Shown in pieces: positions 15,611 to 22,560 of a DNA stretch of 64,000 bases (position 1 is its first letter; every line of letters starts with the position of its first letter). Source of the stretch: Candidatus Eremiobacteria bacterium (GTDB lineage: Bacteria > Vulcanimicrobiota > Vulcanimicrobiia > Vulcanimicrobiales > Vulcanimicrobiaceae); NCBI GenBank assembly GCA_963758295.1, contig CAVWUU010000002.1, forward strand, positions 64,001-128,000, written 5' to 3'. A model generated the notes under the pieces. That model was not told where the DNA came from. It did no database searches and saw only the letters and a list, made by a program, of their open reading frames with translations. The position numbers and the translations under genes were made by a program.

Positions 15611-16384
15611 CTAGTCCCACTTGGGCTGCCGCTTTTCGATGAAGGCTGCGATGCCTTCTTGCGCGTCGCCGTCTTGCGCATTCCCTGTCATTACTTCTTT
15701 CGTAAAGGCGTAGGCGTCGCTCTGAGAGAGATCCAGCTGCTTGTAAAAAGCAGCCTTGCCGAGCCCGACCACCCTTCGGCTGGCTTCGGCGATTTGGTTC
15801 GCGAACTCCAAGGACGACCGGCGAAGATCTTCCGGCTCGACGACCCGATTTACCAGTCCCCACTCAAGCGCCGTTTTTGCATCGATGGCATTGCCGGTAA
15901 GTAACATCTCCATGGCGCGTTTGCGGCCGATGTCCCGGCTCAACGCCACCATCGGGGTGCTGCAAAAGAGCCCGATGCGAACTCCGGGCGTCGCAAACTT
16001 AGCCGCGCTGGAAGCGACGGCGAGATCGCAAGCAGCCACAAGCTGACAGCCGGCCGCCGTCGCAATGGCGCCGACTTCGGCGATGACCGGTTGCGGAATC
16101 GATTCGATCGTCGACATCAGCGTTACGCATCGATCGAAAATCTCGCGGTATACGTCTTCGCTTCTATCGCGCAACTCCCGCAAATCGTGTCCGGCAGAAA
16201 ACGCCGGACCTTCCGCTGCGACAATGACCGCGTGTACCGAGCTGTCCTTACCGATAGCGACAAACGCTTCGTCGAGTTCGCGCATCATGTCAAGCGACAG
16301 TGCGTTGCGCCGGTCGGGACGCCGCATCGTTACGATGGCAACGACGCCTTCACGTTCTACACTTACGTACTCAGTTGTTTGCAT
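15611..16384 (-). CDS. Enoyl-CoA hydratase/isomerase family protein
   Basis: AFSAGHDL, ATAAGCQLVAACDL, GLFCSTPMVAL; real start MQTTEY at 16384 (the ORF-track extension runs through the repeat array). Confidence 0.9.
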   Translation of the reverse strand: MQTTEYVSVEREGVVAIVTMRRPDRRNALSLDMMRELDEAFVAIGKDSSVHAVIVAAEGPAFSAGHDLRELRDRSEDVYREIFDRCVTLMSTIESIPQPVIAEVGAIATAAGCQLVAACDLAVASSAAKFATPGVRIGLFCSTPMVALSRDIGRKRAMEMLLTGNAIDAKTALEWGLVNRVVEPEDLRRSSLEFANQIAEASRRVVGLGKAAFYKQLDLSQSDAYAFTKEVMTGNAQDGDAQEGIAAFIEKRQPKWD

Positions 16385-16395
16385 TTCGCGCTCCG

Positions 16396-16433
16396 AAAAA
16401 TGCAACGGGTTCCGACTTACGCCGCAACCCGTC
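16396..16433 (-). terminator. Probable terminator after the tRNA-Val repeat array
   Basis: Minus strand GACGGGTT...AACCCGTT stem followed by GCATTTTT. Confidence 0.55.
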
Positions 16434-16711
16434 TTATACTTGGGCGATGACGGGCTCGAACCGCCGACATCATTCCCCAATGTGCTGCGCACACCGGGGA
16501 CCCCTATCGTTGAAAACAATTCGCGGCGCCCCGGCGTCCGCGAATTGCCGTCTTTATACTTGGGCGATGACGGGCTCGAACCGCCGACATCATTCCCCAA
16601 TGTGCTGCGCACACCGGGGACCCCTATCGTTGAACGCAATTCGCGGCGCCCCGGCGTCCGCGAATTGCCGTCTTTATACTTGGGCGATGACGGGCTCGAA
16701 CCGCCGACATC
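16429..16711 (-). repeat. tRNA-linked tandem repeat, 120-bp period, three copies of the tRNA-Val 3' end
   Basis: 16441-16560 and 16561-16680 differ at only 2 nt; tgggcgatgacgggctcgaaccgccgacatc starts at 16441, 16561 and 16681. Confidence 0.97.
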
Positions 16712-16753
16712 CTCCTTGTAAGGGAGGCGCTCTCCCAGCTGAGCTAATCGCCC
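16681..16753 (-). tRNA. tRNA-Val(TAC), CCA not encoded
   Basis: GGGCGATTAGCTCAGCTGGGAGAGCGCCTCCCTTACAAGGAGGATGTCGGCGGTTCGAGCCCGTCATCGCCCA folds as a cloverleaf; TACACT -10 upstream. Confidence 0.97.
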
Positions 16754-16884
16754 GTGCGTAGTAGTGTATGCCTTATTCTAGACCGATTTCCCTCGGCGTC
16801 GTCTCTACAGGCCTCTTAAGCCTTCGCGACTCGCTCCGCCTCCAGGCGAACTCCTGCTGCCGGCGACAGCTTCAACCGTTGCGA

Positions 16885-17208
16885 TCAGCCGCCGGAATCG
16901 ATCTTCAAGCCGGCCTTCTTCACCTCACCCGCACAGGCGTAGAAACCGCCGACGCGCGTTTGTTGTCCGTCTCTAGCAGAATAAGGGCCCGCACGGCTAG
17001 TGTAAAAAATGCCGCGATTCGCGCTGCTACCCCAAACAACCGTATCGCCGGCGCAATGCTTCTTCGCATCGGCTTCAGAGCGAAATTGTTGAAGGCTAAC
17101 GCCTGGCATTCCGCTGGTGGCAGAGCCATTGCCCATGGAGCCGGCCCAGCTCTGAGACTGGAGCAGCAGCAAGAACGCAATGATCCCAACCGGAAGTGTC
17201 TTATGCAT
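16885..17208 (-). CDS. Small secreted protein with a Cys pair (HC..DTVVW...YAC)
   Basis: AGGAGG RBS, signal peptide, ORF. Confidence 0.7.
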   Translation of the reverse strand: MHKTLPVGIIAFLLLLQSQSWAGSMGNGSATSGMPGVSLQQFRSEADAKKHCAGDTVVWGSSANRGIFYTSRAGPYSARDGQQTRVGGFYACAGEVKKAGLKIDSGG

Positions 17209-17471
17209 TGGTCTTCCTCCTTTTACAGCGCTCATCTCGTCCGAAAAAGCAACAGGTTGGAGGCCATTTGCGACGTCCGACAGTTAGAGCCGCGTCGTCC
17301 CTCGGCTCAGGCAGCACAACGAACCCGCCGTTAATGAACAGTCCTCAATTTATGATACCAGCCCCGGCGCTTAGAATCCATGTCAGAGCCTCTCGAAATA
17401 CGGATGGAACAAGACGCCGATTTCTGACCCCTGCCGAGCCCTGCATTTCGATCTATTCTCGATTAACATAC

Positions 17472-17506
17472 TTCTACGCAAGATCTAAACACGTCAGCTA
17501 TACAAT
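17472..17506 (+). promoter_or_regulatory. Putative response-regulator box plus -10 (TACAAT)
   Basis: TTCtaCGcAAGATCtaAACAC-N8-TACAAT; same layout at 19784. Confidence 0.55.
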
Positions 17507-17537
17507 GTTCTCGAAGATGCCCACAACAAGATAACCA

Positions 17538-18233
17538 TTGCCGAAAAGACGTTTCCGTCCCAGCCGCGTGCTGGTGGTTGAAGATGATGCAAAAACGTCG
17601 GAGACCGTAGCGCTTTATCTGCGTCACGCGGGATACGAGGTCGCACAAGCATTCGACGGCATGACGGCGCTGGAAGTGGCGGCGTCGTTTGAGCCCGACC
17701 TTGTCATCCTCGATTTAATGCTGCCCATCAAAAGCGGCCTGGAAGTATGTGCAGCCTTGCGTGCGCAAACCGACGTTCCGATCATCATGCTAAGCGCGCG
17801 TACCACGGAAGTGGACCGTCTGCGCGGGCTGGATGCCGGTGCCGACGACTATGTCTGTAAGCCGTTCAGTCCCCGGGAAGTTGCCGCCCGCGTACGGGCG
17901 ATTCTGCGCCGCGGACCCGTGGGCGATGAACGCGTCGTCTGCGGCGCCCTTACGCTCGACAGCGCCTCGCACGAAGCAACCGTCGGCGGAACACCGTTGG
18001 TGCTCACACTCAGCGAATTTCGCCTGCTGTTCTCGCTTTGTCGCGCGTCCGGGAAGGTGCGCACGCGTGACGATCTCATCAGCGAAGTGTATGGCGTCGA
18101 GTATACCGGCACGGAGCGCGCGATCGACGTCCACGTCCGCAACCTCCGGAAGAAGATCGCAGAAGCCGGAGGACCGCCGGACTGCATACGTACCATTTTC
18201 GGCGTGGGGTACAAAATGTCGGCCCATGCGTAG
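17538..18233 (+). CDS. OmpR/PhoB family response regulator (BaeR-like)
   Basis: VVEDD, LDLMLP, GADDYVCKPF, RAIDVHVRNLRKK, TIFGVGY. Confidence 0.93.
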   Translation: MPKRRFRPSRVLVVEDDAKTSETVALYLRHAGYEVAQAFDGMTALEVAASFEPDLVILDLMLPIKSGLEVCAALRAQTDVPIIMLSARTTEVDRLRGLDAGADDYVCKPFSPREVAARVRAILRRGPVGDERVVCGALTLDSASHEATVGGTPLVLTLSEFRLLFSLCRASGKVRTRDDLISEVYGVEYTGTERAIDVHVRNLRKKIAEAGGPPDCIRTIFGVGYKMSAHA

Positions 18234-19614
18234 TCTGCAGGCTCGACTATTGCTGGCCATCCTGCTCGTGACGTCGTGCGCGCTCATCGCAGTCGGCGTG
18301 TTTTCGATGCGAACGACGGCGATGCAGTTCCAGCTTTTGGAACAATCGCGCCTGGCCTCGCGCCCGATATCGCCTGCAGCGGCGAAAGCGCTGGGGTTGT
18401 GGTATTCCAAACATGGCTCTTGGCGCGGCGTCGATGTCGAGCTGCGCACGCTTTCGCCATCGGCGATGTTGTTCTCGCCCCAAGGTGTCTTTCTGGCGGC
18501 TGCGCTCCCGGGAGTCGAAGCCGTAACACTCGACGCTCGCGACCATTCGATCGCGCGTTTAACGTTTTCGCGCGGCGGCAAAGTGGCGCAAGTTTTGTTG
18601 AGCGATTGGCACGGCATTCCCGTCACGGATCGCCGCCGGCGCGTCGTCGCGCAAATCTTCGAGGTTCCGATTCCGGCCGTCCGCGCGGAGGAGCCGTTAC
18701 AGGTTTTAGCGCGGCAGTTGTGGCTTGCAATACTTTGCGCGATCATCGCGGCGCTACTGGTCGCCGCGATACTGGCGCGGAACATCCTCGCACCCGTGTA
18801 CCGGCTACGCGATGCGGCAACTGCCTTGCACGGCGGCGATCTCTCGCGGCGTGTGCACGCCGGCGGCCCCGCAGAGATAGAAGAACTAGCGCACCATTTT
18901 AACGCCATGGCCGAGCATCTCGAACGTTCGGAAGAGCTGCGTAAGCGGATGATTTCCGACCTCGCCCACGAGTTGCGTACGCCCCTTACGAATATCCGCG
19001 CTATGCTTGAGGCGATGGAAGACGGTCACATGGCGCCAACCAAAACGACGCTGCATTCACTTTCAGAAGAAGCGATGCTGCTCGCGCGCTTGGTCAACGA
19101 TCTGCAAGATATGTCGCTCGCTGATGCCGGCCAATTTTCGTTCCAGATTTCAAACGTTTCGATGCTCGATTGCGCAGAGTCGGCAGTGGCCTCGCTCGAG
19201 GCCGCCGCATTAGAAAAGAAGATCGAAATTACCGTGCAGTCGAACGGCGTAAACGGCATGGTTTTAGCGGATGAAACGCGGCTACGCCAGGTCATCGTAA
19301 ACATGCTCTCAAATGCGATTCGCCTCTCGCCCAAGCGCTCAAAGATAACGATCGCCGTTTCGCACGCCGGTTCTTTTGTCAAGGTCGCGGTGCACGACGA
19401 AGGTCCGGGCCTCTCACAGGAGGCGCTAACGAGCGCATTCGAGCGGTTTTATCGCGCCGACGAGTCGCGCGCGCGCGCGAGCGGGGGCGCCGGCTTGGGC
19501 CTCGCTATTGCGAAACAACTGGTTGAAGCGCTAGGCGGCACGATCGGCGCTGAGAATAACGCAGGCAAAGGCGCAACGTTTTGGTTTACGCTGCCGGCGG
19601 CACACGCGGTATGA
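18226..19614 (+). CDS. HAMP sensor histidine kinase (BaeS-like)
   Basis: Two TM segments, HAMP, AHELRTPL, NMLSNAIR, DEGPG, GGAGLGL; start MRSLQARL overlaps regulator stop. Confidence 0.92.
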   Translation: MRSLQARLLLAILLVTSCALIAVGVFSMRTTAMQFQLLEQSRLASRPISPAAAKALGLWYSKHGSWRGVDVELRTLSPSAMLFSPQGVFLAAALPGVEAVTLDARDHSIARLTFSRGGKVAQVLLSDWHGIPVTDRRRRVVAQIFEVPIPAVRAEEPLQVLARQLWLAILCAIIAALLVAAILARNILAPVYRLRDAATALHGGDLSRRVHAGGPAEIEELAHHFNAMAEHLERSEELRKRMISDLAHELRTPLTNIRAMLEAMEDGHMAPTKTTLHSLSEEAMLLARLVNDLQDMSLADAGQFSFQISNVSMLDCAESAVASLEAAALEKKIEITVQSNGVNGMVLADETRLRQVIVNMLSNAIRLSPKRSKITIAVSHAGSFVKVAVHDEGPGLSQEALTSAFERFYRADESRARASGGAGLGLAIAKQLVEALGGTIGAENNAGKGATFWFTLPAAHAV

Positions 19615-19783
19615 CGCCTCAGCGCGCAGTACGGCTCCTTGTTGGAGCCCCCTTCAACTTTGTTATCGTGAGCGCTGTATAGCGCGGCTGTACCTCGATT
19701 CGGCCAAAAGAAGCGCTGAGTTCCGCAGCACGGTTCTACTCTAGCGCAGGCTTGTTGTTAAGATCGATCGAGCATCCCGTCGA

Positions 19784-19818
19784 TTCCTCGAAAGATCCTA
19801 ACACCGGCGTTTTATACT
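19784..19818 (+). promoter_or_regulatory. Putative response-regulator box plus -10 (TATACT), probably a leaderless promoter
   Basis: TTCctCGaAAGATCctAACAC-N8-TATACT, 7 nt before GTG 19826. Confidence 0.55.
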
Positions 19819-19825
19819 TCGAGTC

Positions 19826-21208
19826 GTGATAATGCAAACGTTGTTCCTCACTCTCATGTCAATGCAACTCCTCGCCGCATCGAGTGCACACGTCGTTACC
19901 GATCTGCAACAGACGCTTTCGACCCTCGCCGCTCAAGATAAATTTTCAGGAGCGACGCTGTTGGCAAAACGCAGCCATGTGCTCTTCCAGCGAGCTTACG
20001 GTTACGCGGACCATTCGTTCGGCGTCAAAAACACCGTCAACACGAAATTTAATATTGGTTCCATGGGCAAAATGTTCACGGGCGTCGCGATTCTTCAACT
20101 CGCGCAGGCCGGCAAGCTCTCCCTCGACGACCGCCTCATCAAGGACCTTCCGTCGTACCCGAACCACGCAGTGTCACGATCGATCACTATTCGTCAGCTG
20201 CTCACGCACACGTCAGGCCTCAGCGACTTTTTCGGCCCGCAGTTTATCGCAAACAACATGAGCCGGTTCGATTCGCTCGAATCTCTGCTGCCGTTCTTCG
20301 TAAACAAGCCGCTACTTTTCAAACCCGGATCGTCGTGGCGATACAGCAACGCCGGATTCATCGTCCTTGGTATGGTTGTCGCGCACGTTTCGGGACAGTC
20401 CTATTACGATTACGTTCAGCGTCACATATTCGACGTCGCGGGCATGCGCGATACGGGCAATTGGGCCGCCGACGAAGACATTCCAAACCGTGCGATCGGT
20501 TATACCAACATGACCGGCGCTCCAGGCGCGCCGCGCAAATCAAATGTGTTTTTTCTTCAACGCGGTGGCTCGGCCGGCGGCGGCTATTCAACCGTGGGCG
20601 ACCTTTGGCGTTTTGCTCGAGCGCTTCAAAACAACAAACTTCTGAGCCGCGCGTATACGAAACTGGAACTGGAAGGGCATGCTGACACGGGGCGGCCCGG
20701 CGTTCGATACGGCTTCGGCATGGAAGAGCGAGTCGTGAACGGCGTGCGCATCGTCGGCCATTCCGGCGGCGGCCCCGGTATTCAAGGCGTTCTCGAGATG
20801 TATCCGGATTCGGGATATGTCGTATCGATTCTCACGAACTATGATAACGCAATGTCGGAAGTCGATCCGCACATTCGTGCCGCGCTCACCGGCGAACGAA
20901 AACCCAAAGCCCTCGCCTTGTCGCCCGATCAGATCCGAGCCGTGCTCGGCACGTACGTGCCGGTACTGCCGCCGGGCACCGGCATGACGCCGCCTCCGAT
21001 CGTTATCACGGCCGAAAAAGACGGTCTCAAGGTCGATCCCGGAATGGGTCCTGCGTTTCACTTCGTGCCGGTATCTTCAACCGATTTCGTCGGCATCGAC
21101 GATGCGACGCTGCACATTACGTTTCTGAAAGACGCGAGGGGCGTCGTGACGGGCCTAAAAACTACGGGCTTTGGACCGGTGCCACCAATTTCCGCGAGGA
21201 AGCAATGA
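19826..21208 (+). CDS. Secreted serine hydrolase, beta-lactamase class C/PBP-like family
   Basis: Signal peptide, SMGK (SxxK), LLTHTSG, YSN, HSGG. Confidence 0.88.
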   Translation: MIMQTLFLTLMSMQLLAASSAHVVTDLQQTLSTLAAQDKFSGATLLAKRSHVLFQRAYGYADHSFGVKNTVNTKFNIGSMGKMFTGVAILQLAQAGKLSLDDRLIKDLPSYPNHAVSRSITIRQLLTHTSGLSDFFGPQFIANNMSRFDSLESLLPFFVNKPLLFKPGSSWRYSNAGFIVLGMVVAHVSGQSYYDYVQRHIFDVAGMRDTGNWAADEDIPNRAIGYTNMTGAPGAPRKSNVFFLQRGGSAGGGYSTVGDLWRFARALQNNKLLSRAYTKLELEGHADTGRPGVRYGFGMEERVVNGVRIVGHSGGGPGIQGVLEMYPDSGYVVSILTNYDNAMSEVDPHIRAALTGERKPKALALSPDQIRAVLGTYVPVLPPGTGMTPPPIVITAEKDGLKVDPGMGPAFHFVPVSSTDFVGIDDATLHITFLKDARGVVTGLKTTGFGPVPPISARKQ

Positions 21209-21553
21209 ATCCGGCGCTCCTATCGGCTATTGAGAACGGCACGCGGCCGGCGGAAACATTGGCGGACTACATACTCGCTATCTCTTCAGCGCCGAACAAA
21301 TCCGAATCGGCGATACGTCGCTCGAGTACGCACGTGCTATCGCTCGGGAACGAGTCCAAGGCGCTTCAATTCCTTTTTATAGTCTCAGGCGCAGTACGCT
21401 AAGGCATCTACGGCAACGCGATACAAACAGGGTGCTGGTCCGTTCTCCCTATTCGCCAACCAACGTAGCGCCGGTCGCGCCATGCATACAAGCAGCTTCT
21501 TGCTTTATGGACAATTGAGGCCATATCGACGAAGCGTCGAACGTGCTGGAGAT

Positions 21554-22273
21554 ATGGAAACACGCCTCGATGAGATCGCGCCGCAGATTTACCGCATTTC
21601 CACGTATGTTCCACAGGCCGGTATGGTGTTCAACCAGTTCTTGATCGACGCGGAAGAACCGCTGATTTTTCACACCGGCATGCGGGCGTTATTTCCGGTG
21701 GTCGCCGAACAAGTCGCACAAGTCCTGACGCCAGCGAGATTGCGATGGATTATGTTCGGCCACTATGAAGCGGACGAATGCGGCGCGATGAACGAGTGGC
21801 TTTCACTAGCACCGGGCTCAACTGTAGCGCACGGCGCGATTGGCGTCATGGTCTCGGTCAACGATCAGGCGATTCGCCCGGCGCGTCCCATGAAGAGTTC
21901 GGAAACGATTGATTTGGGCGGCAAATGCATTCGCTACATCGCGACGCCCCACGTTCCCCACGGTTGGGACGCCGGGGTGATCTACGAAGAAACGACGCGC
22001 ACTCTATTTGCCGGTGACCTCTTTACGTGCACGGGCCCAACGGCAGCCGTGACCGAAAGCGGCCTCATTGAACCGGCGATGCAGGCAGAGGATCGCTTTG
22101 GTGCGACCGCTCTTACCGCTCTAACCGCGCCCACCATCCGCTCACTGGCCGACCTCGAAATTTCGTGCATGGCGCTCATGCATGCACCGGCGTTCACGGG
22201 CGACGCGAAGCACGAACTTCACGATTTGGCGAATGCCTACGAAAGCCGCTGCAATCCAAGTTTGATTGTGTAG
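21554..22273 (+). CDS. Metallo-beta-lactamase fold protein (FprA/ODP-like)
   Basis: FHTG, GHYEADECG, TPHVPHGWD, LFAGDLF. Confidence 0.8.
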   Translation: METRLDEIAPQIYRISTYVPQAGMVFNQFLIDAEEPLIFHTGMRALFPVVAEQVAQVLTPARLRWIMFGHYEADECGAMNEWLSLAPGSTVAHGAIGVMVSVNDQAIRPARPMKSSETIDLGGKCIRYIATPHVPHGWDAGVIYEETTRTLFAGDLFTCTGPTAAVTESGLIEPAMQAEDRFGATALTALTAPTIRSLADLEISCMALMHAPAFTGDAKHELHDLANAYESRCNPSLIV

Positions 22274-22517
22274 ACTCGCCGGCAAACGTCAATCGAACGG
22301 CGCACTCAGTGCGCGTTCCCTGACCGGTTTCTGCGGGTTCAAACCGACGGCCCGTTCGCGATTTTTTCAAACATGTCGCGTGGGCGCAATCACCGGGATA
22401 GGACGCCGAGAATGGGTACAGCGGCATTTTTTTGATCACGGCCGGGCACGGCCGGGCAGAGAGAAGCGCCGACTCATGAGGAAACGGCGCTATCTCGAAG
22501 CGGTCAATGTCGCGAAT

Positions 22518-22560
22518 CCCATTTGTAAGGGTGGCGCTCTCGCAGCTGAGCGAATGGCCC
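22518..22560 (-). pseudogene. Degenerate 5' half of tRNA-Val (att-like scar)
   Basis: 22523-22560 matches 16716-16753 at 34/38 nt; close match ends at the anticodon loop; no T-arm. Confidence 0.8.

Follow-up and report, generated by a model that had tools for sequence, protein, structure and literature searches.

The array of tRNA-Val 3' ends analysed here consists, on the reading that we prefer and to which we give an even chance, of two tandem copies of a gene-less 120-bp unit whose family crosses phyla, would move as single-stranded DNA and would carry its own copy of the gene end at which it inserts. It lies in the window, i.e. the whole 64,000-nt stretch that was analysed, from the genome of a Candidatus Eremiobacteria bacterium (G000).

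Structure of the tRNA-Val array

Tandem Repeats Finder reports one tandem array at 16429-16711 (period 120, 2.4 copies, 98% matches), and a repeat search of the window finds a 38-nt repeat core at 16434, 16554 and 16674 with 100% identity. The array is made up of two units of 120 bp, and the tRNA-Val 3' end occurs in it three times. These results bear out an earlier note, made from the letters alone, which had described three tRNA-Val 3' blocks with near-identical inserts. The difference of 2 nt between the inserts, also noticed there, is found in two adjacent bases (16635/16636 in unit 1 versus 16515/16516 in unit 2). The features are as follows.

16681..16753, minus strand: intact tRNA-Val(TAC) (ARAGORN; Rfam RF00005, 66 bits)
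16681-16711, minus strand: first target copy (T1), the last 31 nt of tRNA-Val; junction J at ~16711/16712
16637..16668, minus strand: hairpin A of unit 1 (homology by alignment), probably part of the duplicated gene end
16629..16634, minus strand: TTCAAC motif of unit 1
16595..16624, minus strand: family core of unit 1, a GGGGT tag plus CCCC-stem-GCA-stem-TGGGG, followed by AAT (3 nt) and the repeated tRNA end
16561..16591, minus strand: second copy of the tRNA-Val 3' 31 nt
16517..16548, minus strand: hairpin A of unit 2
16475..16504, minus strand: family core of unit 2, identical to that of unit 1
16441..16471, minus strand: third copy of the tRNA-Val 3' 31 nt (T2), by comparison with rpoB likely the displaced native end
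16405..16432, minus strand: host terminator-like hairpin after the last fragment
15611..16384, minus strand: enoyl-CoA hydratase gene (Pfam PF00378), downstream flank, outside the element
16754..22522, no strand: separate 5.8-kb island on the 5' side of the tRNA, absent in G003
22523..22560, minus strand: degenerate tRNA-Val 5' half upstream of the 5.8-kb island (blast 34/38 nt to tRNA-Val; synteny with G003)

On the minus strand the order is tRNA-Val(TAC), trailer, hairpin A, TTCAAC, core, AAT and the 31-nt tRNA end, seen again at 16561-16591 and 16441-16471. Unit 1 is followed by unit 2, the third 31-nt end, a different terminator-like hairpin and the enoyl-CoA hydratase gene. The 31-nt tRNA copies are identical and differences are confined to the trailers. 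Both hairpins of each unit and the final terminator-like hairpin (16405-16432) are present as the earlier note had it. The pairing it gave for the second hairpin has to be corrected to a minus-strand reading, namely GGGGT + CCCC-stem-GCA-stem-GGGG with two G.T pairs which form on this strand only. The 89-nt trailer-plus-insert of the unit folds as DNA with z = -5.0. Rfam returned only sub-threshold matches to BjrC68 and NrsZ on the window stretch, which we take as chance. A 342-aa ORF runs through the array into the hydratase gene; it is taken as incidental because the unit of a related genome (G002) is 115 nt long.

On the other side of the tRNA, at 16754-22560, the 5.8-kb island is located between the degenerate tRNA-Val 5' half (22523-22560) and the intact tRNA, hence the 5' half of the tRNA was replaced by the island. 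It encodes a response regulator and a histidine kinase (a two-component pair) as well as beta-lactamase-family and ODP-family proteins. G003 lacks this island and G002 has a different 3.8-kb stretch at the same place.

Further islands and repeats were seen elsewhere in G000. A classical island at tRNA-Ala(CGC) (C1:648770-651510) has a 3' fragment of 52 nt at a distance of 2.6 kb downstream, together with an integrase divided between two frames. At C3:264449-265200 a tRNA-Asp is followed by one small ORF and then by a degenerate copy of its own 3' two-thirds with a terminator. A second abundant repeat family, palindromes of the GTCATCCTGAGC type, forms long tandem arrays (e.g. C4:705719-706720 and C6:132011-133364) and is unrelated to the hairpin core.

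The locus in related genomes

Five other genomes of the genus (G001-G005) were compared with G000. G002, an independent assembly, has one 115-nt homologous unit at the same junction. G003 shows only a relic of the core, without tRNA fragment, and the junction of G005 is empty. G001 and G004 gave no match to the locus. Copy-number variation and empty sites are therefore both found, with 2, 1, relic and 0 units per genome within the genus, which supports the non-autonomous, mobile-type element suggested in the earlier note. Among 301 genomes of the order the exact core-plus-fragment pattern occurs in G000 (2) and G002 (1) and in no others; the unpublished genomes G004, G024 and G036 enter our tallies with non-matching rows only.

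The core stem is nearly alike in G000, G002 and G003. This suggests that the Val insertion probably predates the three species and that the second unit was gained recently. Moreover, hairpin A resembles the host terminator after the last fragment in G002, which points to a repeated gene end of ~75 nt at Val and would leave only ~45 nt for the element proper. Counting the relic, three or more species of the genus have the Val unit, a probably old member of the family without a guide. Its tandem second copy would most simply come from local recombination between repeats; recent unequal recombination of this kind, or re-integration of an excised unit, is the likely source.

The raw reads of the only run listed (share 0.06) cover the tRNA and part of the hydratase gene only and do not reach across the array. 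We nevertheless consider an artefact of the assembly extremely improbable: the two units differ by 2 nt, a single, diverged unit occupies this junction in an independent genome (G002), and tandem arrays of a similar kind are present at other loci of seven or more further genomes.

A hairpin family in several phyla

A tagged hairpin, TCAA..GGGGTCCCC-stem-TGGGG, forms the end of the unit; it is found at three more loci of G000 and in several phyla. In G000 the same core occurs in an array at the 3' part of tRNA-Gln(TTG) (189 bp x 2.3), in an array at a gene end that we recognise as cysS (128 bp x 3.1), and at tRNA-Ser(CGA) as a single unit with a degenerate core. Copies at other tRNAs, which the earlier note had proposed to look for, thus exist in G000 and its relatives, and at genes as well. 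TYAA precedes the core by 2-9 nt in 27 of 53 sites that were not selected for it. Upstream of the tRNA-Gln locus a c-di-AMP riboswitch is located in G000 and G020 (L093:4665-4804; L039:482-618).

The exact core pattern gave 72 matches in 14 of 41 relatives versus 2 for the reversed control. Scans of sequence collections returned at least 122 genome, at least 118 metagenome and 15 viral stretches; the core patterns miss variants of the GGAGTCCTC..GAGG type, so that family counts are lower bounds. Such cores with compensated changes (GGAGTCCTC..GAGG) are seen at the rpoB end in L299 and L300. Named records among the matches listed belong to Acidobacteriota, Oscillospiraceae, Bacteroidales, Dormibacterota/Chloroflexi and Eremiobacterota, and some phage contigs have the core too. 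A well-paired hairpin forms in 55 of the first 80 genome loci of the scan, the remainder being largely chance. The stems vary between copies; among the 25 cores in the genome of one Flavonifractor isolate, almost every one has a stem of its own. The targets are many different tRNAs (Val, Gln, Ser, Glu and others) and ends of protein genes, in either orientation. For element-filled sites between operon genes and inside the RNase P RNA, empty counterparts exist in G000.

The inner pairs of 117 distinct hairpins, a set selected for at most one inner mismatch, comprise 650 Watson-Crick, 13 G.T, 4 A.C and 23 other pairs. In an unconstrained scan the first pair is mostly R..T. Both this and the excess of G.T over A.C fit folding of one strand.

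Several members sit in unusual places. One lies inside an open dnaE2-like frame of 1222 aa (L061:1179-4847), one within the RNase P RNA (L071:2797-3250), and others apparently inside pgk-like (L083) and valS-like (L045/L076) coding regions. At many operon junctions (L038, L041, L043, L055, L079, L112) the final GGGG of the core is found a few bases 5' of a start codon; judged from its position it could be a ribosome-binding site held in the hairpin. In L062, L080, L082, L084, L085 and L089 (family f2, genus g21) the element is tandemly repeated and the core hairpin ends before GGGG. These shortened cores suggest breakpoints at the 3' side of the hairpin.

Gene ends repeated downstream of the hairpin

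At 39 of 124 distinct sites the end of the gene or tRNA is repeated, starting 0-8 nt after TGGGG, and the other 85 have no long repeat. A set of 105 sites shows the repeat at 33 of them, most commonly at an offset of 3 nt and with lengths of ~20-120 nt, compared to 0 of 300 permuted pairs; in the metagenome set 12 of 61 sites have it. The repeat typically extends to the terminus of the gene, that is to the stop codon for 3' ends and across ribosome-binding site and start for 5' ends, where the element is antisense. Since several sites duplicate gene 5' ends with the element antisense to the gene, DNA and not RNA is indicated. Pfam-backed targets are uvrB, a heavy-metal ATPase, tsaD and a nitronate-monooxygenase-family gene, and the gene after the L147 site is rpoC (Pfam). 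The names cysS, gyrB, lepA, nusA, rpoB, truB (at L262), pgk, valS, dnaE2 and infB are those we assume by recognition of the sequence.

The paired gene ends of 32 coding loci (575 codons) show 84 synonymous versus 22 non-synonymous codon differences, with 23% of possible single changes being synonymous; in this comparison L033 has no row and L271 no codons, L226, L240 and L243 stand in wrong frames and add 6 non-synonymous counts, and the sites do not count as independent, with lepA represented by five loci and G041 by two paralogous ones. If a spare copy drifted freely, non-synonymous changes should be much more frequent. As the paired ends differ mostly synonymously, one copy likely arrived with the element.

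Which copy this might be is indicated by rpoB. Against five empty alleles, 9 differences are private to the upstream copy (T1) and 1 to the downstream copy (T2), while windows upstream show 0-2 and in one case 5. Between two carriers, the upstream copies differ at 4 nt only. It is thus probably the upstream copy that moves together with the element, and the downstream copy would be the displaced native end. For lepA, where four carriers were scored, T1 and T2 are about equally far from the empty alleles and the pattern is mixed. At many sites T1 is identical to T2, compatible with a recent transfer from close kin and with plain duplication alike. Some T2 copies carry stops or substitutions. 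At the level of the family the repeated gene end behaves as an att-type replacement copy, in line with the att-type reading given to it before.

At the lepA 3' end two other families of small inserts without the core (L320, L326, L328, L329) duplicate the last 8-10 codons with synonymous differences. Hence replacement of gene ends by tiny elements may be a general strategy.

Antisense copies of the insertion point

In 23 of the 39 repeat-bearing sites, part of the insert is the reverse complement of the target at that site and spans the junction (score >= 9), against 5/1498 in the null and 0/37 in the upstream-window control; the other 16 lack it. An independent metagenome set shows the antisense at 7 of 12 sites (null 0/1000). 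Sites without repeat have an antisense to the 3' flank in 8 of 85 cases. The segment is 8-25 nt long; over 36 sites, of which L171 is probably a chance match, its median reach is 6 nt upstream of the junction and 7.5 nt beyond it. By eye it is usually found just 5' of the body hairpins.

One tRNA-Ser junction is common to G000, G014, G020 and G230, which represent four genera and three different target sequences, and each of these targets has a perfectly matching antisense of 20-24 nt. At the rpoB end the junction has moved near the stop in two relatives, which have a different antisense matching the new junction (by eye). A third relative with a shortened repeat retained the old antisense. 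Within the antisense span, T1/T2 differences favour T1 at 5 positions (3 of these from one site), T2 at 1 and neither at 1. The Gln and cysS arrays of G000 have no antisense; the same Gln junction has one in L442. The Val units reach a score of 5 only, below the threshold, so that the earlier note could not have noticed this trait, the most unusual one of the family. The antisense copy of the insertion point likely helps to aim the elements at many sites, not including Val.

The antisense may also be a scar. A REP- or MITE-like hairpin would insert at a break with a long 3' overhang, fill-in would make the duplication of 20-120 nt, and the overhang snapping back would leave an antisense with no guiding role. 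Only duplications of whole gene ends would survive, and later recombination in the host would give the synonymous differences. Such a staggered cut explains why the antisense straddles the junction by a median of 6 nt upstream, why it always matches the local host and why it can be absent, and the many sites with identical T1 and T2 agree with it. Long duplications of 8-514 bp are known for IS1549/IS1634, and the available part of PMC2266710 proposes no mechanism for them. Nevertheless, the foreign-looking T1 of rpoB (9 private differences versus 0-2 in most windows) would require an extra recombination ending near the junction, re-use of the same junction (tRNA-Ser in four genera, uvrB, lepA, tRNA-Gln) is not predicted, and the IS1634 transposase is absent in 5 genomes. 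We regard this, the main rival, as the unlikelier account, though one with a real share of the probability. For Val, single-strand replacement and staggered cut give the same history, an old insertion and then a local tandem gain.

Events on the RNA level appear quite improbable to us. The element would then be a mini-intron or processing signal whose antisense pairs with the upstream and then with the downstream copy, like P1/P10 of group I introns, and both gene ends would be translated or processed. The topology matches, the G.T/G.U pairs hold on one strand and both copies are under coding constraint. However, neither the window stretch nor 12 family loci gave an Rfam family on the elements, several sites are antisense to the gene whose start is duplicated, stops or substitutions occur in some T2 copies, and the bodies are variable and only ~45-170 nt in length.

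Search for a mobilising enzyme

Y1_Tnp (PF01797) was found in none of 14 motif-bearing relatives, single-contig genomes at 92-97% completeness included, versus 6 of 27 relatives without the motif; among five other carriers three have it. No core is located within 1.5 kb of 22 Y1 loci (loci up to ~3.3 kb), and G000, an 82% complete genome, has no TnpA. Amplification of a REP/BIME-like repeat by a RAYT (Y1 HUH) enzyme, with capture of flanking DNA, is improbable in the light of this distribution. It would account for the tag 5' of the hairpin foot, the GNA-type loops, the tandem arrays and the in-gene insertions, all of which resemble REPs, and TnpA-REP cleaves, joins and can sequester flanking DNA according to the accessible text of PMC3333891. 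Against it, the GGGGTCCC start is unlike the GTAG, CGTC or GGGGWSAS given in the parts available of PMC3733652 and PMC6006769, and stems vary from copy to copy within a genome.

Other enzymes gave a similar picture. RT, IS1634, IS110 and Rep_trans are absent from G000, G009, G020 and G026, carriers of the order. The IS1634 transposase (NF033559) was found in 0 of 5 genomes, and RT (PF00078) in 0 of 4 relatives and 1 of 5 overall, with no core near the RT loci. In the genomes searched, the carriers thus lack the host transposase expected for IS1634-type elements and their MITEs, and also the reverse transcriptase, whether in the host or beside the element, expected for retroelements such as group II intron derivatives or SINE-like sequences. 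Searches with PF00589, PF01548, PF02486 and PF01541 gave no gene with a core beside it except uvrC in G041 (PF01541), which looks like a target and not like a mobiliser. No core was found beside integrase, IS110 or small GIY-YIG loci. The 107 ORFs neighbouring 55 family loci, which are longest-ORF picks and many of them spurious, include one integrase and no recurring mobile gene (Pfam). A gene-sized insert between repeat and core is present at none of 113 + 39 sites. The viral scans show scattered copies, with no autonomous form among the ORFs listed for the first scan.

The earlier note had suggested a tRNA att site, and minimal islands flanked by att sites, with a tyrosine or serine integrase specific for the tRNA as mobiliser, are, in our view, very improbable. 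The tRNA 3' fragments do flank the units, and tRNA-Val also takes islands on its 5' side. Against this, one core serves many unrelated targets, many tRNAs and protein-gene ends among them, which would be unlike the arm site of an integrase. The tyrosine-integrase search has no position inside the window, as had been noticed before, and the tyrosine recombinase hits of G000 are elsewhere than the array with no core nearby. Neither a cognate tyrosine integrase nor an HUH/RAYT gene linked to the core was found elsewhere.

Proposed mechanism and significance

On our preferred reading the element would move as single-stranded DNA and join a fixed junction near a gene end. Its 3' end is seen to be fixed, with the repeat beginning 0-8 nt behind TGGGG. 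A replacement copy of the gene end would travel with it, as suggested by the mostly synonymous differences from the displaced end. The antisense would putatively anneal to the target strand over the junction and set the position of the strand exchange, and the enzyme for this step would be supplied in trans; that it is of the HUH type is a guess. Integration would regenerate the junction, and further copies could therefore stack.

A more ambitious proposal is put forward tentatively and falls short of an even chance. The family may represent a widespread class of self-guided mini-integrative DNAs of 100-300 bp, combining a junction-spanning guide of 8-25 nt with a replacement gene end, which would be re-targeted by rewriting of the guide and use an enzyme in trans. 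They would be the natural counterpart of IS608 engineered with a long guide, and the Val array would be an amplified case lacking the guide.

If the antisense aims the insertion, a natural DNA-guided and gene-preserving integration system would exist across several phyla. Carriers include culturable gut Oscillospiraceae, which makes a direct test feasible. Were the antisense scar no more than a by-product, it would still be a mechanistic handle on long variable target duplications and on the origin of tRNA-linked repeats. The elements would moreover transfer the first or last 5-45 codons of core genes from one lineage to another, a way of exchanging alleles on a small scale. Taken by itself, the Val array is a modest case. 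Literature searches, mostly outside subscription journals and without supplements, returned no description of motif, family or antisense trait; the repeat might be listed in the additional files of PMC3733652 and PMC3372372.

Comparison with known systems

The available parts of PMC3733652, PMC3184786, PMC6006769, PMC3333891, PMC5027513, PMC2266710, PMC8144298 and PMC5934647 were used for comparison. With REP/BIME/REPIN plus RAYT and with TIRtrons, as far as the accessible text of PMC3733652, PMC3333891 and PMC6006769 describes them, the family shares a short tag on the 5' side of a GC-rich hairpin, copies that are dispersed or amplified in tandem, and insertion into genes. The short GC-rich hairpin, dispersed and in tandem, is that of a REPtron. 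In contrast, the core begins with GGGGTCCCC and not with the GTAG/GGAG, CGTC or GGGGWSAS TIR of REPtrons (same parts of PMC3733652 and PMC6006769). The family further differs from REP/RAYT in the lack of a linked Y1 (no Y1 gene flanked by the repeat was found), in the long gene-end repeat at a fixed 3' offset, in the junction-spanning antisense and in stems that vary within a genome.

A hairpin followed by TCAA resembles the right end of IS200/IS605 elements, whose insertion is not known to make a target duplication. The family has a long repeat at 39 of 124 sites (short duplications being unscored in the other 85). IS608 and ISDra2 of this group have single-strand hairpin ends and select the target by base pairing with element DNA 5' of the hairpin foot, according to the available text of PMC6006769. 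Both traits have likenesses here, the hairpin ends and a putative pairing segment 5' of the foot. The natural guide has 4 nt in the text available, and a target pairing of 12-17 nt works in vitro for engineered IS608 (PMC5934647, in part). Unlike these elements, the family has an antisense of 8-25 nt, carries the gene end along and has no TnpA found.

In E. coli, TLR/RtT (RF00391) follow tRNA or rRNA genes in one to five units; every unit closes with the 3' end of the gene in question, and 18-19 nt are repeated, within tRNA/rRNA operons (available part of PMC8144298). The Val unit likewise ends in a copy of the 3' end of the upstream tRNA. Unlike TLRs, the family repeats 31 nt at Val and 20-120 nt elsewhere and includes protein genes, and RF00391 gave no match on the window stretch at E <= 1 or on 12 family loci at gathering score. 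Target repeats that are long and vary in length (8-514 bp, PMC2266710 in its available part) are common to IS1549/IS1634 and the family. The family differs in having no DDE transposase, in being polar with one fixed end, in the antisense and in paired copies which have often diverged synonymously.

The family does not fit REP/RAYT, RtT, IS1634 or integrase islands in the membership tests run. Integrative elements such as genomic islands and prophages restore their target gene: the foreign copy completes the gene and the displaced native end lies downstream. A carried copy of the gene end is what the family has in common with them. It differs in its size of ~100-300 bp, in having no integrase (no tyrosine recombinase is linked to site or core, with 1 integrase in the 107 neighbouring ORFs) and in one conserved core for many unrelated targets. 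By analogy, the family would work as a hairpin element of the REP or IS200/IS605 type that is at the same time a gene-restoring island.
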